Of a DNA stretch of 64,000 nt, positions 72 through 20,486 are shown piece by piece. Both the position numbers and the translations under genes were made by a program. Numbering within the stretch: the stretch's first letter is position 1; the number at the start of each line of letters is the position of its first letter. The stretch is from assembly GCA_965116925.1 (NCBI GenBank), contig OZ220744.1, forward strand, positions 6,016,001-6,080,000. Reading direction: 5' to 3'. A model generated the notes under the pieces. The model saw nothing but the letters and a program-made list of their open reading frames with translations, was not told the DNA's origin and made no database searches. This DNA comes from Candidatus Poribacteria bacterium (GTDB lineage Bacteria > Poribacteria > WGA-4E > PCPOR2b).

Positions 72-1100
72 ATGTATAAAGAAAATGGGCAAGAGATTTT
101 TGTTGTTGACGGGCATATGCACTTTTGGGACGCCAACCCGGAAAACTGGCGCAATGAGTATGGCGAAGGTTGGATCCGCTGTTTCTACGATTTTCATACC
201 GCCCTCAGCCCGGAAGAATATGTCTGGTCGTTTGAAAAGTATTGCAAATACGGTGAAGAGACGCTAGTTAACGATCTCTTTTCGGAGGGATACGTCGACG
301 TTGCCATTCTCAACTCAACGTATCTGTACGAGTTTTATAAAAACGGATTTAATACCCACCAACAGAACAACGAGATCAAAGCGAAATATCCCGATCGTTT
401 TATTCTCTGCGGTTCCTTCGATCCCAGAGCGGAGGAGGCCGGACTGGACGCGTTCCGGCAGATGGTAGAGGATTACCCGATTCAGGGACTCAAGCTCTAC
501 ACCGCCGAATGGCGAAACGGCTCGAAAGGCTGGCGACTGAACGATCCGTGGGCTTACAAGTATTTTGAGCTCGCCGAGGAACTTGGGGTTAAAAATATCC
601 ACGTTCACAAGGGACCGACGGTTTATCCTCTGAATCGTGACGCTTTTGATGTTGCTGATGTGGATTATGCCGCCACTGACTTTCCCAATCTCAACTTTAT
701 CATTGAACATATTGGACTGCCACGGTTAGACGATTTCTGCTGGATCGCCACGCAGGAAAAGAACGTCTATGCCGGCATGTCGGTGGCAATGGCGTTCATC
801 CACTCACGCCCGAAATATTTCGCCGAGATCGTTGCTAACCTGCTGTTTTGGTTAGGCGAGGATAAGATGATCTTTGGCAGCGACTATGCGATCTGGACGC
901 CCAAGTGGTTGATTGAGAAGTTTATGGCACTTGAGTTGCCGGACGATATCAAAGAGGAATATGGGGTTGATCTTACACCAGAAGCCAAGCGCAAGGTCTT
1001 GGGTGAAAATGTCGCCGGTCTGTATGGGATTGACCTCTCCGCCCATCGCGAGAAACTGAGCCAAGATGAGATTGGCCTCAAACTTGCCGAGGGCGCATAA
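72..1100 (+). CDS. Amidohydrolase_2 family metal-dependent hydrolase
   Basis: DGHMH metal motif at N-terminus, HKG, EHIG, FGSDY, KVLGEN; GAGGAG RBS upstream. Confidence 0.85.
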   Translation: MYKENGQEIFVVDGHMHFWDANPENWRNEYGEGWIRCFYDFHTALSPEEYVWSFEKYCKYGEETLVNDLFSEGYVDVAILNSTYLYEFYKNGFNTHQQNNEIKAKYPDRFILCGSFDPRAEEAGLDAFRQMVEDYPIQGLKLYTAEWRNGSKGWRLNDPWAYKYFELAEELGVKNIHVHKGPTVYPLNRDAFDVADVDYAATDFPNLNFIIEHIGLPRLDDFCWIATQEKNVYAGMSVAMAFIHSRPKYFAEIVANLLFWLGEDKMIFGSDYAIWTPKWLIEKFMALELPDDIKEEYGVDLTPEAKRKVLGENVAGLYGIDLSAHREKLSQDEIGLKLAEGA

Positions 1101-1160: not shown

Positions 1161-2270
1161 ATGATCGCTGCACATACTGATGTCGTTGGCAGCTTGCTCC
1201 GCCCATCTGAACTTCTCAGAGCGAGAAGTGAGGTTGCGACAGGCAAAATGACGCAAGCGGCGTTCAAAGCGATCGAAGATCAAGCGGTTGACGAAGCGGT
1301 TGCACTTCAGGAGGCGGTGGGCTTGGAGGTTGTGACCGATGGCGAGATGCGGCGGTTATCCTTCCAGAGCCAAATGACAGAAGCGGTCAGTGGTTTTGGA
1401 GAATATGATCTCGATGCGTTCCTCTGGGGTGATTGGCATGGTGACGAAGGTACGGGGAGTTTGAGCCTAGAACGCCCCAAAAGCTTGGGCGTTGTCGGCA
1501 AACTCACCCGCAAACGGCACCTCTCAACAGAGGAATTTATCTACCTGCGAGCGCGGACGAATCGTATACCGAAGATCACGTTGCCGAGTCCAAGCCTGTG
1601 GACAAACTTCTGGTCGCCAGAATACTCCACCCCCGCCTATCCCACGCTCGACAGTTTTCTTGCGGAGGTCGTTGACATTATGCGGGACGAGGTCGCTGAG
1701 TTAGTCCGGCTAGGTGCAACCTACATTCAACTTGATGCTCCCCATTATCCGTTGTTGCTCGATCCCAAAACGAGAACCTTCTACGAGGGACAAGGTTGGC
1801 GGCTTGATCAGTGGTTAGACCGGGGTATTGAGATGGATAACGCTGTGATTGGTGATTTTCCGGAGGTGACGTTCGGCTTTCATCTCTGACGCGGCAATCA
1901 GGGCAGCCGGTGGTTGGTCGAAGGGGGATACGATCTGATTGCCAAACCGATTTTTCGTGGCATCCGTGCCCAGCGTCTACTACTCGAGTACGACGATGAA
2001 CGCTCCGGTTCGTTTGAACCGTTGCAGGCGATTCCCGATGACAAGGTCGCTGTTTTAGGGTTGGTCACGACGAAAACGCCGCGCCGAGAAACGCCGGAAG
2101 TACTCACTGCGCGTATCAAGGAAGCCAGCCAATTTGTGCCGCTAGAACGGCTTGCCTTGAGCCCGCAGTGTGGTTTTGCTACTTCGGTCCTTGGCAATCG
2201 CATTACGGCAGAAGATCAGAGACGTAAATTGTCGGTGGTTGTTGAGACTGCTAGAACGGTGTGGGACTAA
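1161..2270 (+). CDS. Cobalamin-independent methionine synthase (MetE catalytic-domain-only) family protein, probable selenoprotein (Sec243)
   Basis: ORFs 1161-1889 and 1914-2270 are in the same frame, separated only by TGA 1887-1889; joined protein reads VVGSLLRP, TDGEMRR, YIQLDAP, FHL-U-RGN, LEYD, SPQCGF; 369 aa. Confidence 0.85.
1890..1919 (+). promoter_or_regulatory. Candidate SECIS hairpin after MetE-like UGA
   Basis: 11-nt spacer (1890-1900), then GGGCAGCC-GGT-GGTTGGTC imperfect stem-loop with a G/U loop. Confidence 0.5.
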
Positions 2271-2298: not shown

Positions 2299-2505
2299 AT
2301 GGCACAAACGCCTAAAAACCATCAAACCCGAACCGAATCTATTGGCAAATGGACGGTTCGGATTAGATCTTACCAGCTCGGTGATGCGTATATCTGCACT
2401 GTGGACAATGTAAGCCCCGGTGCTGTCATCGCCCGGTCTACGGCTGCAACCCGTGCTGATGCGGAATCCGAGGCGTTGGAACAGGCGAAAGCCGCGATGG
2501 CATAA
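2299..2505 (+). CDS. Small hypothetical protein (68 aa)
   Basis: Strong AAGGAGGAG RBS; 28 nt after the MetE-like stop; beta-strand then helix pattern. Confidence 0.7.
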   Translation: MAQTPKNHQTRTESIGKWTVRIRSYQLGDAYICTVDNVSPGAVIARSTAATRADAESEALEQAKAAMA

Positions 2506-2597: not shown

Positions 2598-3659
2598 ATG
2601 AACCTGAATAAATTATCACGAAAACATACCCTCACAAGTCTGGCAAAAACATGTGGGTGAGCGGCGAAAGTCAGTCCAGTTGGACTGGGAGAACTGCTCG
2701 CCAAATTGCCGAAGAAAAACGACCCCAATCTGCTCGTTGGATTTGAAACTAGCGACGACGCGGGCATCTACCGTCTCAACGATGAGATGGCTTTAGTTAC
2801 GACCGCTGATTTCATCACGCCGCCGGTGGATGACCCGTATCTGTTCGGTCAAATTGCTGCCGCCAATTCAATCAGCGATATTTATGCGATGGGCGGAAAA
2901 CCTGTGACCTGTCTGAATTTGGTGGGTTTTCCAGCGGATAAATTGGATCCAGAAATCCTGCACGGAATTGTCGAAGGTGCGCTGAGTAAAATCACTGAAT
3001 CTGGCGCAGTCTTGGCGGGTGGCCATACGACCGATGATGAGGAACCGAAATTTGGGCTGTCGGTCACTGGAATTGTGCATCCGGACAACTATTGGCGGAA
3101 CGTCGGTGCAGAGCCGGGAGATGTCCTGATCTTGACAAAACCGATCGGCAGTGGCGTGATTTTTAACGCCAACCTGAAAAATTGGGTGTCAGACCAAGCG
3201 TTAGACGAATGTATAGGGGCTATCACGACGCTCAATAAGGGGGCGGCGGCGGTTATGGCTGGGTTTGACATCCATGCGGTGACGGACATCACCGGATTCG
3301 GATTGGGAGGTCATGCCTTGGAAATGGCAGAAGGGTCGGACGTGACTTTGGAGATTCGCACCGACGACGTGCCGATTATGCGTGAAGCACTGGAGATGTA
3401 TCAGAAAGGGATGCGGACCGGTGTCAACGCCGCCAATCGAGCGTTGATTGAAGAGTCCACACGTTTTGAAAAATCACTTCCTGCATGGCATGAGGAGATC
3501 TTTGTTGATCCGCAGACCAGCGGTGGACTGTTGATGTCTGTGCCAGCTGCTCAAAGCGAGTCACTGTTGGCGGCTTTACACAATGGTGGTGTGACAGAGG
3601 CACAGATTATCGGAGTTGTGAAGTCTTTTGTCAAACCGAACTATCTTGTTTTTGTATAA
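2598..3659 (+). CDS. selD: Selenophosphate synthetase (SelD/SenC), selenoprotein with Sec21
   Basis: ATG 2598 reads MNLNKLSRKHTLTSLAKTCG-U-AAKVSP (TGA 2658-2660), in frame with ORF 2706-3659; DDAG, TADF, ANSISDIYAMGG, GGHT, TDITGFGL, DPQTSGGLL motifs. Confidence 0.95.
2661..2699 (+). promoter_or_regulatory. SECIS hairpin of selD
   Basis: 11-nt spacer after UGA, then perfect stem CAGTCC-AGTT-GGACTG (2672-2687); lower stem GAGCGG/CTGCTC. Confidence 0.75.
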
Positions 3660-3662
3660 ACC

Positions 3663-4613
3663 ATGAAAATTTGCTTAATTACCCCTGCCCCAACATACTC
3701 CCGAAAAGGTAATCGTGTGACTGCCCTTCGGTGGGCCCGCATCTTACGAGAACTGGGACACCGTGTCGTTATTGCAGAGGAGTATCAGGGAGAGCGATGC
3801 GACGTGCTGGTCGCACTCCATGCCCGGCGCAGCCACGCCTCCATTGTGCATTTCCGCCATAAACACCCAGAGCTGCCCCTTATTCTTGCCTTGACTGGAA
3901 CAGATCTCTACGGCGATATCCATACGGATGCATCAGCCCAAGAATCTCTGGAGATGGCGGATCGCTTCATTCTATTACAGCCCGCAGGCATCGAAGAACT
4001 TTCAGAACGTCTGCGCCACAAAGCGTGGGTAATCTACCAATCGATAACAGCACCGCCGGGGCAATTTGTTCCAAAGAAGAGCGTTTTCGAGTTGTGTGTG
4101 TTGGGGCATCTGCGTCCTGTGAAGGACCCATTTCGTACTGCGATGGCTTCCCGACAACTGCCTCCATCATCCCGAATTCAGGTGGTACATGTTGGGGGGG
4201 CACTCACCGACGACATGAGAGTACAGGCAGACGCTGAAGTCGCCGCCAATCCACGTTACCGCTGGTTGGGAGAACTCCCGCGCTGGCGGGCGCTCCGTGT
4301 TCTCGCACGCAGTCGGGTTCTTGTGCTGACCTCGCAGATGGAGGGAGGGGCAAATGCAGTTTGCGAAGCGATTGCGTGTTCTGTCCCCGTCATCTCATCG
4401 CGGATATCTGGCTCGATCGGTCTTTTAGGGAGGGATTATCCGGGATACTTTCCGGTGGGAGATACACAGGCGTTGACGGACCTACTCACGCGCCTTGAGA
4501 TGGACACCGCATTTTATGATACACTCAAAGCGTGGTGTGAAGGATTAAAGCCGATTGTTGATCCTGACCGTGAACGTCAGAGCTGGAAACGTCTGCTACA
4601 GGATTTGCAATAG
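3663..4613 (+). CDS. senB: Selenosugar synthase SenB-like glycosyltransferase (TIGR04348-type)
   Basis: GNRVTALRW, LHARRS, LTGTDLY, GHLRPVKDP, EGGANAV motifs; starts 3 nt after the selD stop. Confidence 0.85.
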   Translation: MKICLITPAPTYSRKGNRVTALRWARILRELGHRVVIAEEYQGERCDVLVALHARRSHASIVHFRHKHPELPLILALTGTDLYGDIHTDASAQESLEMADRFILLQPAGIEELSERLRHKAWVIYQSITAPPGQFVPKKSVFELCVLGHLRPVKDPFRTAMASRQLPPSSRIQVVHVGGALTDDMRVQADAEVAANPRYRWLGELPRWRALRVLARSRVLVLTSQMEGGANAVCEAIACSVPVISSRISGSIGLLGRDYPGYFPVGDTQALTDLLTRLEMDTAFYDTLKAWCEGLKPIVDPDRERQSWKRLLQDLQ

Positions 4614-20307: not shown

Positions 20308-20486
20308 AACGTGAAAACTATTTGGTTCATTAGTTCATTGATGAAGTTGGGTTGGGAAATCCAACCTACAGAGACGAAAAAAGACAGGGCAGAATGTAAA
20401 GAGAAACCGAGTTTTTTCTTGAAAACTCGGTTTCTGTTGCACGATTTCTTAACATAAGCCAAAGGGAATAGTCTCAGGAGAATGGA

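Follow-up and report, generated by a model that had tools for sequence, protein, structure and literature searches.

A MetE-like gene with an in-frame UGA, predicted to encode a selenoprotein, beside selenoneine genes in Candidatus Poribacteria and other bacterial phyla

The window analyzed here, a stretch of 64,000 nucleotides from a Candidatus Poribacteria bacterium (assembly GCA_965116925.1, contig OZ220744.1, positions 6,016,001 to 6,080,000), carries near its beginning a MetE-like gene that the list of open reading frames (ORFs) of the window divides into 1161-1889 and 1914-2270, both in one common frame. The read-through translation of 1161 to 2270 is 369 residues long, with TGA at 1887-1889 (codon 243) as its sole internal stop, in the context ...VTFGFHL-U-RGNQGSRWL..., and TAA at 2268-2270 as the terminal one; a second lesion was not found in this frame. 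An earlier note on this DNA, drawn from the letters alone, had described the two ORFs as one frame broken by a single TGA and otherwise free of lesions, and the translation bears out both statements. On the sequence evidence given below, we hold with high confidence that 1161-2270 is an intact selenoprotein gene in which UGA 1887-1889 is decoded as selenocysteine (Sec), and the gene very probably represents a genuine selenoprotein version, apparently absent from published lists, of an enzyme family already known.

The TGA is conserved among relatives. A six-frame search of the organism's own genome (complete, 6.47 Mb) and of 60 related ones, 61 genomes of the order in all, located orthologues at 78-100% identity in 23 genomes, 20 of which belong to the genus of the window organism (its own included) and the other three to three different further genera within the family; the remaining matches are stop-free paralogues of at most 36% identity. 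Every one of the 23 orthologues has an in-frame TGA in the column of codon 243, which is invariant in the codon alignment, and 22 of them have no other; the gene of genome G005 has a second TGA at an Arg codon. Purifying selection acts on both halves of the gene, with Nei-Gojobori ratios of nonsynonymous to synonymous substitution (dN/dS) of 0.090 upstream (242 codons) and 0.090 downstream (132 columns) at a mean dS of 0.8-0.9, and of 0.058 across the 20 codons right after the TGA, where RGNQGSRW is nearly invariant at the protein level. The potential downstream start, TTG at 1914, reads CTG in 5/23 orthologues and CTN in 44 of the 62 distinct TGA-form sequences from the wider collection described below. 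Counting TGA against TGY in close relatives and comparing dN/dS on the two sides of the TGA were checks that the earlier note had proposed; the relatives proved uniform in having TGA, and the 3' half is not relaxed. Since the TGA is conserved, both halves are under purifying selection and the TTG start is not kept throughout, readings of the TGA as an error, as the mark of a pseudogene or as the break in a split gene are very unlikely.

Contigs from four public runs span the TGA, two of these runs being RNA libraries from two studies, and no variant at 1887-1889 appears among the variant rows listed for them, which lends weak support to the TGA not being an assembly error. One RNA-library contig covers 1161-2554 and another 1545-1921, although such contigs cannot show transcription level or translation. 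The public runs that match the stretch are mostly sponge metagenomes. The second in-frame TGAs encountered in the family lie at an Arg codon near residue 130 (loci L028/L126, the gene of G005) and at a Trp codon near residue 216 (L113), which hints at decay or at errors of sequencing in the lineages concerned.

The residue replaced by the TGA is a Cys in most of the homologues sampled. A protein search returned at least 8000 candidates at E <=1e-20, of which the 120 best, drawn from many phyla, extend without exception over the full length (361-394 residues) and are 72-79% identical to the window protein. Alignment A1 holds 33 of these 120, hand-picked for long contigs or named sources, and has Cys at column 243 in 33/33; among the best 80 metagenome loci, the same column is Cys in 67, TGA in 12 and TGG in 1. 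The earlier note had given HLCRGN as the usual motif of this subfamily, and the more distant full-length homologues do carry the Cys. A DNA pattern for FHL-TGA-RGNQ, run over one-genome-per-species contigs, gave at least 119 stretches, and 80 loci were taken further. In 42 of the 80, a MetE-like protein of 62-91% identity is encoded through the same TGA; 40 of these loci are assigned to Chloroflexota (11), Candidatus Poribacteria (9), Acidobacteriota (8), Methylomirabilota (5, including the partial L134), Latescibacterota (2), and Gemmatimonadota, Bacteroidota, Myxococcota, Tectimicrobiota and Planctomycetota (1 each), and the TGA form occurs in at least 10 phyla. The other 38 loci contain no MetE-like gene and were rejected as chance matches; about 35 such matches are expected from the degeneracy of the pattern by our own estimate. 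A FastTree phylogeny was built from 124 family rows (rows with fewer than 330 aligned residues omitted, 6 of the 23 close orthologues used) and three paralogue outgroups. The TGA and Cys forms interleave on it, with at least 10 changes between them, 3 of which are forced by well-supported branches, and the window gene clusters with Candidatus Poribacteria genes.

The genome has the machinery that decoding of UGA as Sec calls for. The presence of selA, selB and selC, which the earlier note had wanted confirmed, was found for selA (607 bits), selB (373 bits) and tRNA-Sec (76.6 bits), each above its cut-off and all together at 2.374-2.377 Mb. Ten further TGA-form genomes from other phyla all have selA (10/10), compared with 1/14 in a control set of well-known genomes. 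The gene for selenophosphate synthetase, selD, starts in the window at 2598, 327 nt past the TAA of the MetE-like gene (about 330 nt by the earlier reckoning), and has an in-frame TGA of its own in the context TCG-U-AAK, followed by a strong hairpin (z -2.26) with its loop at nucleotides 21-24. It is single-copy in the genome and therefore also serves as SenC.

A hairpin follows the UGA of the MetE-like gene as well. With nucleotides numbered from the U of UGA, the sequence AGC CGK TGG YTN forms a 5-bp stem (18-22 with 26-30, that is, 1904-1908/1912-1916 in the window) around a loop G-G/U-U at 23-25, and does so in a set of 61 different sequences that covers about 10 phyla. Of the five stem pairs, three do not vary within this set, pair 20-28 alternates between G-C and G-U, and pair 18-30 has three compensated double changes as well as two breaks; the G-C to G-U and the double changes fall on synonymous sites. 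The earlier note had placed a hairpin behind an 11-nt spacer; its hairpin stood, but the spacer of the element conserved across phyla is 14 nt. More telling than shuffling is a comparison of the two forms of the gene, which encode the same peptide and differ in the codons from which the loop is built: the middle loop nucleotide is the third base of an Arg codon that is CGG in 54 and CGT in 8 of the TGA forms (G or T in 62/62), compared with CGC in 43/56 and CGG or CGT in only 10/56 of the Cys forms, and the Ser codon before it is AGC in 62/62 TGA forms as against 49/56 Cys forms, counts that are inflated by kinship even though the forms interleave on the tree. The loop at 23-25 compares with one at 21-24 in the selD hairpin of the same genome, and its position agrees with the G23/U24 loop of E. 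coli fdhF. We consider the hairpin a probable Sec insertion sequence (SECIS). Two larger versions of it were dropped: a 9-bp stem (1893-1901/1934-1942) is not kept in other phyla as a conserved element, and extension by pairs 16-33 and 17-32 adds 23 unpaired cells and no double changes.

The product read through the TGA scores 59.1 bits against PF01717 (cut-off 21), and among solved structures the closest match is 1YPX from Listeria (E 1.8e-50, residues 5-368), in which HICRGN is the stretch aligned to HLURGN. An AlphaFold2 (AF2) model built on A1 (pLDDT 86.8, pTM 0.89) has a (beta-alpha)8 fold like that of the MetE C-terminal domain, as found by Foldseek, for which the top folds are MetE 1T7L (E 1e-18, TMq 0.74), 1YPX (TMt 0.82) and MesD 3RPD. 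The protein is not a canonical two-domain MetE, with 39.4 bits against TIGR01371 (cut-off 929.95) and a match confined to model positions 428-601. It also stays below the cut-offs of both NCBIfam short forms, PRK06520 (237.6 vs 313) and PRK06233 (224.3 vs 576), and for that reason is placed on a branch separate from the two; a selenoprotein-specific model that matches it is not present in NCBIfam of June 2026.

His241, Glu276 and Cys337, reported in the earlier note as intact ligands, are indeed present and invariant in A1, and so are Ser11, Glu62 and Asp192, which stand in GS, GE and QxD motifs aligned to MetE chains. E. coli MetE binds zinc through H641, C643, E665 and C726 and homocysteine through S433, E484 and D599 (PMC7857596; this paper, like PMC10418091, PMC13188914 and 10.1101/2022.04.13.486033, is cited from the excerpts available). 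The alignment of H-x-C to 1YPX, the E. coli ligand set and the MetE-like fold of the model make it quite likely that Sec243 is a zinc ligand. The invariance of Ser11, Glu62 and Asp192 makes homocysteine or selenohomocysteine the likeliest substrate, and an acceptor of the homocysteine type is slightly favored overall. As for the donor, methyltetrahydrofolate triglutamate is unlikely because the N-terminal folate-binding barrel is missing and the TIGR01371 score is low. The genome encodes three short MetE-like paralogues of the Cys type as well, and it has MetH as separate genes only, for the homocysteine-binding, pterin-binding, cobalamin-binding and reactivation modules (4268978-4281439, 4018247-4019071).

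The surroundings link the TGA form of the gene (metEU), at some of its loci, with the biosynthesis of selenoneine. In the window, the gene that follows selD is senB, which the earlier note does not mention and from which the neighborhood takes its significance. The gene order metEU-orf68-selD-senB occurs in 9/9 Poribacteria loci, orf68 being a 68-residue ORF without a match in Pfam or NCBIfam. The full selenoneine route is encoded in the genome, with SelD/SenC and SenB in the window and with SenA (NF041186, 511.8 bits vs 420) and EgtD (364.5 vs 290.9) outside it at 0.88 Mb. The order is egtD-metEU-senA, with gaps of about 70 nt where the flank is available, in five Methylomirabilota loci (one with a partial gene) and in one further locus; it is senA-senB-metEU-egtD, with gaps of 20-85 nt, in one Planctomycetota locus; and one Latescibacterota locus has metEU, one gene of no assigned family and then senA-senB. 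The MetE-like gene is built into selenoneine loci in the window organism and at least three other phyla. In two sets of loci of different origin, egtD, senA, senB or selD lies within 8 kb in 17/42 TGA loci (in three gene orders) vs 0/65 Cys loci, or in 12/32 vs 0/12 when at least 3 kb is available on both flanks. Within the order, the MetE-like gene is present in 23/42 SenB-positive and 0/19 SenB-negative genomes, selA being found in 60/61, and SenA scores above its cut-off in 6/10 of the further TGA-form genomes. The neighbors of Cys forms are MttB-family methyltransferases, enolase-superfamily and ornithine-cyclodeaminase-like genes, and transporters of the major facilitator superfamily (MFS) or the ATP-binding cassette (ABC) type, with one Cys form beside an aromatic-amino-acid lyase and a BHMT-like gene. 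TGA forms without sen neighbors occur in mixed contexts; at three loci from Dehalococcoidia, one of the three ORFs on one side encodes a SulP permease. Upstream of the window gene, an alcohol dehydrogenase, a DUF59-like and an amidohydrolase gene are possible members of the unit; their synteny is confined to Poribacteria, the last of these being 95-98% identical and adjacent in 8/9 Poribacteria loci. The features are collected in Table 1.

Table 1. Positions of the MetE-like gene, its functional codons and RNA elements, and neighboring genes (window coordinates unless a locus is named)
Feature	Position	Strand	Basis
MetE-like (Meth_synt_2) gene, predicted selenoprotein, single-domain, 369 residues	1161..2270	+	Read-through, PF01717, 1YPX match, AF2 model
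UGA predicted to be read as Sec, residue 243, Cys position of the H-x-C zinc motif	1887..1889	+	TGA in 23/23 orthologues, Cys in homologues
His241 codon, putative zinc ligand	1881..1883	+	Invariant in alignment A1; aligns with His of 1YPX HICRGN
Glu276 codon (LLLEYDD), putative zinc ligand	1986..1988	+	Invariant in alignment A1
Cys337 codon (SPQCGF), putative zinc ligand	2169..2171	+	Invariant in alignment A1; aligns with PxCG of MetE chains
SECIS-like mini-hairpin, stem CAGCC/GGYTG, loop GGT 1909-1911, 14 nt past UGA	1904..1916	+	Kept in 61 distinct sequences
Possible lower stem around the mini-hairpin (1893-1901/1934-1942), kept within the genus only	1893..1942	+	ViennaRNA fold of window and most congeners
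Amidohydrolase_2 gene, directly upstream	72..1100	+	PF04909 141.9 bits
68-residue ORF (orf68) between the MetE-like gene and selD	2299..2505	+	93-99% identical, same place, 9/9 Poribacteria loci
selD (selenophosphate synthetase), itself a selenoprotein (UGA 2658-2660)	2598..3659	+	TIGR00476 375 bits vs cut-off 125
senB, selenosugar synthase of selenoneine biosynthesis	3663..4613	+	TIGR04348 402.6 bits vs cut-off 300
OsmF/ProW-like fused transporter	L073 10460-12043; L082 4008-5612; L130 2769-4292		

Further observations concern these surroundings. A 32-nt palindromic repeat, GAAACCGAGTTTT-N6-AAAACTCGGTTTC, occupies 2526-2557 between orf68 and selD and recurs in the window at 20403, 24013, 28606, 31496, 58077 and 60090 (7 copies in total); it has 155 sites in the genome vs none for the reversed control, shows enormous contig depth in sponge-derived runs, and looks like an element of the repetitive extragenic palindromic (REP) type or a bidirectional terminator. 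The SenB gene has an in-frame TGA in 10/42 SenB-positive genomes of the order, and in 6/6 loci examined (L264-L269) it aligns with Cys144 of the window SenB (VFEL-C-VLGHLRPVKDP; codon ~4092-4094), a candidate Sec/Cys pair in the selenosugar synthase to judge from the alignment; within the excerpt available, the family table of a 2026 review (PMC13188914) makes no mention of SenB, TIGR04348, glycosyltransferase or selenosugar. In one Latescibacterota locus (L095 10713-11663), SenB is present as two ORFs (model positions 1-124 and 150-309), for which a frameshift, a stop or a Sec codon is possible. Near the egtD-metEU-senA genes of Methylomirabilota and Planctomycetota loci, there is a fused OsmF/ProW-like betaine ABC transporter (binding protein and permease), which could move hercynine or selenoneine.

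The reading that we favor, with moderate confidence in it as a whole, is that of a MetE-like zinc enzyme with Sec in its active site and a homocysteine-type acceptor, which in selenoneine loci serves the recycling of S-adenosylmethionine (SAM). SelB and Sec-tRNA(Sec) would decode UGA 1887-1889 as Sec, guided by the hairpin with its GGU loop at nucleotides 23-25, and the product would be a single-domain (beta-alpha)8 enzyme of the MetE catalytic-domain family, on the short 1YPX-type branch and without the folate-binding N-terminal domain. Its catalytic zinc would be held by His241, Sec243 and Cys337, joined in the resting state by Glu276, and by analogy with MetE would bind and activate the thiolate or selenolate of an alpha-amino-acid substrate, to which a methyl group would then be passed from a non-folate donor. 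With selenolate as a ligand, the zinc site would catalyze better or tolerate oxidation better. In selenoneine loci, the enzyme could convert homocysteine to methionine and in this way regenerate what the methylations by EgtD consume, each hercynine made by EgtD costing three SAM, in methylations from which homocysteine ultimately results. This last part, the SAM-cycle role in selenoneine synthesis, is tentative.

Several observations weigh against this reading. With regard to the genomic context, 25/42 TGA loci have no sen or egtD neighbor, SenA was not found in 4/10 of the further TGA-form genomes, and one TGA locus (L065) adjoins an MttB-family gene, as do some Cys forms. The TGA and Cys loci compared for their neighbors are not strictly comparable sets, because one comes from a pattern search and the other from another collection, with shorter contigs, and the split of 23 to 0 between SenB-positive and SenB-negative genomes amounts to a single evolutionary event because the gene traces to one clade of the order. 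Co-transcription of the MetE-like gene with selD-senB is doubtful because the terminator-like repeat at 2526-2557 intervenes. With regard to the coding sequence, a second in-frame stop is present in 2/59 TGA-form rows, possibly indicating decay in some lineages, and one metagenome locus, L201, has TGG (Trp) at the Sec/Cys column; L200, a contig otherwise identical to L201, has Cys there. With regard to the hairpin, its covariation score is matched by 120/500 shuffles and its double changes concern one pair only, a weakness due to the hairpin being short (5 bp) and hardly varying; the local fold of 1880-1960 is no more stable than shuffles (z +0.86); and Rfam (E up to 10, 1800-2800) gave no SECIS family for the MetE-like gene, nor for selD, a search made uninformative by the SECIS of selD having been missed too.

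Alternatives to Sec in an intact gene can be weighed against the conservation of the TGA. If the TGA terminated translation, two separately made pieces, an N-terminal one of 242 residues and a C-terminal one of 118 residues begun at TTG 1914, would have to assemble into one enzyme, for which the two ORFs of the lists speak, as does the existence of split MetE proteins in some archaea (PMC7857596). Such an arrangement, however, would not call for the eight codons from TGA to TTG (RGNQGSRW) to be nearly invariant or for the low dN/dS just past the TGA, the TTG is replaced by CTG in 5/23 orthologues and by CTN codons in 44/62 distinct Sec forms, and the break falls exactly on the ligand Cys column in every lineage; we regard it as very remote. 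A pseudogene by recent nonsense mutation, or an assembly error, would need one base to turn TGC or TGT into TGA, and two relatives do carry a second stop, but a TGA kept in 23/23 orthologues at a dS of ~0.9, with dN/dS of 0.09 downstream of it, found at 42 loci in about 10 phyla and spanned by contigs of four public runs with no variant at 1887-1889 among the rows listed, leaves this barely conceivable. A change of the genetic code (TGA read as Trp or Gly) was rejected because the genome has the full Sec system and relatives carry Cys at the aligned position.

Other roles for the Sec are conceivable as well. The main rival reading, itself unlikely, is that the enzyme belongs to a dedicated selenium small-molecule step instead of being a methionine synthase. 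Its Zn(His)(Sec)(Cys) center would then bind selenoneine, the selenosugar made by SenB, methaneselenol or selenide as a selenol from the pathway, for Se-methylation, for example to Se-methylselenoneine, or for a demethylation that feeds selenide to SelD. Such a step fits the places in which the gene is found, flanked at distances of 20-85 nt by egtD and senA or by senB and egtD in Methylomirabilota and Planctomycetota loci and adjoining selD-senB in Poribacteria, and it fits the finding of sen genes next to TGA forms only (17/42 vs 0/65 for Cys forms). For MtaA-like Mlps, of the UroD/MetE superfamily, methyl-selenium compounds have been proposed as substrates (PMC10418091), and a selenolate substrate would be well matched by a soft selenolate ligand. 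Invariant Ser11, Glu62 and Asp192, on the other hand, are a better fit for an amino acid without modification than for a trimethyl-betaine or a sugar; that the Sec and Cys forms are 72-79% identical and interleave on the tree speaks for a substrate common to both; and the 4/10 TGA-form genomes in which SenA was not found count against a dedicated step. That the protein is an unrecognized fourth enzyme of selenoneine-type metabolism, with a Zn(His)(Sec)(Cys) center handling a selenol, is in our view unlikely, though not remote. If true, it would provide the first case in nature of a catalytic zinc bound by a selenolate, and a pathway largely made of selenoproteins (together with Sec-SelD and the Sec SenB of relatives) whose synthesis depends on the selenium that the pathway consumes. 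Improbable is a purely redox role without a metal, in which Sec243 and Cys337, opposite one another in what was the zinc site, would cycle through a selenenylsulfide and thereby reduce the selenoxide or selenenic-acid intermediate of SenA, or selenoneine diselenide. Most known bacterial selenoproteins do have Sec in redox motifs (PMC13188914), senA neighbors the MetE-like gene in some loci, and the dithiothreitol (DTT) in SenA assay mixtures in vitro (10.1101/2022.04.13.486033) suggests that SenA needs a cellular reductant; but His241, Glu276 and Cys337 are invariant in Sec and Cys forms alike, as expected of a metal site, the homocysteine-binding residues are kept, and Cys forms are found in contexts unconnected with selenoneine.

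The MetE-like selenoprotein, which we prefer to read as a zinc-dependent methyltransferase, appears not to have been listed. A 2026 review of the prokaryotic selenoproteome (PMC13188914) tabulates >110 families by its own text; within the excerpt available, its table has no entry for MetE, homocysteine, PF01717, NF005085, PRK06520 or B12, and methionine occurs only for MsrA, in agreement with the remark of the earlier note that MetE is not one of the classical bacterial selenoprotein families. A MetE-like selenoprotein is likewise not mentioned in the main texts of BSepDB (PMC13326102) or deep-Sep (PMC12013277), and literature searches found no paper describing one. The family is invisible in protein databases because gene callers truncate it at codon 243. 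If the protein is made as predicted, it would add to the known selenoproteins a widespread family that spans at least 10 phyla and occurs throughout one genus of sponge-associated relatives of Poribacteria, with selenium acting as a ligand of catalytic zinc and not as a redox center, and would offer a natural system for studying the effect of a selenolate on a Lewis-acid zinc site. That the gene has repeatedly been inserted in selenoneine clusters points to an unstudied accessory step, be it methyl-cycle coupling, Se-methylation or selenium salvage.

In comparison with known systems, the sen cluster (senA, senB, senC) described by Kayrouz et al. (10.1101/2022.04.13.486033) needs only SenA, SenB, SenC and EgtD for its pathway in vitro, and the MetE-like gene, which lies inside this cluster in other phyla, is not a defined member of it in the excerpts of that publication. 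The core folate-independent methionine synthases MesA-MesD are likewise single-domain relatives of MetE that keep the zinc and homocysteine residues, and they use other methyl donors, namely corrinoid proteins or MesX with O2; the four families are <30% identical to each other, and none is described as a selenoprotein in the available excerpts of the source (PMC7857596). The solved MesD, 3RPD, matches the window protein at E 2.7e-6 and ~20% identity and is also a fold hit, and DUF1852 (MesX) is not among the scanned neighbors in the window or in locus L055, the genome itself not having been searched for it.

The short 'cobalamin-independent methionine synthase II family' of the 1YPX type (PRK06520 / PRK06233) has the same length, single-domain build and H-x-C-RGN-x-x-S-x-W motif as the window protein, which differs from it by having Sec for the motif Cys. 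We know of no function shown for the 1YPX type. With MetE (E. coli, and T. maritima 1T7L/1XDJ) the protein has in common the catalytic (beta-alpha)8 domain PF01717, the His/Cys/Glu/Cys ligand pattern and the homocysteine-binding Ser/Glu/Asp motifs, and it differs in having no N-terminal folate-binding barrel and in one ligand being Sec. Bacterial selenoproteins with a SECIS inside the ORF, such as SelD, likewise have UGA at the column of an active-site Cys, a downstream hairpin with a G/U apical loop, of which the hairpin of the MetE-like gene is a probable counterpart, and Cys orthologues. Their prototype is E. coli fdhF, with UGA at the active-site Cys, a hairpin whose G/U loop lies at about nucleotides 22-25, and dependence on selABCD. 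In the well-studied cases of metal ligation by Sec, the metal is Mo or W (FdhF) or Ni ([NiFeSe] hydrogenase), whereas in the MetE-like protein it would be a catalytic zinc.

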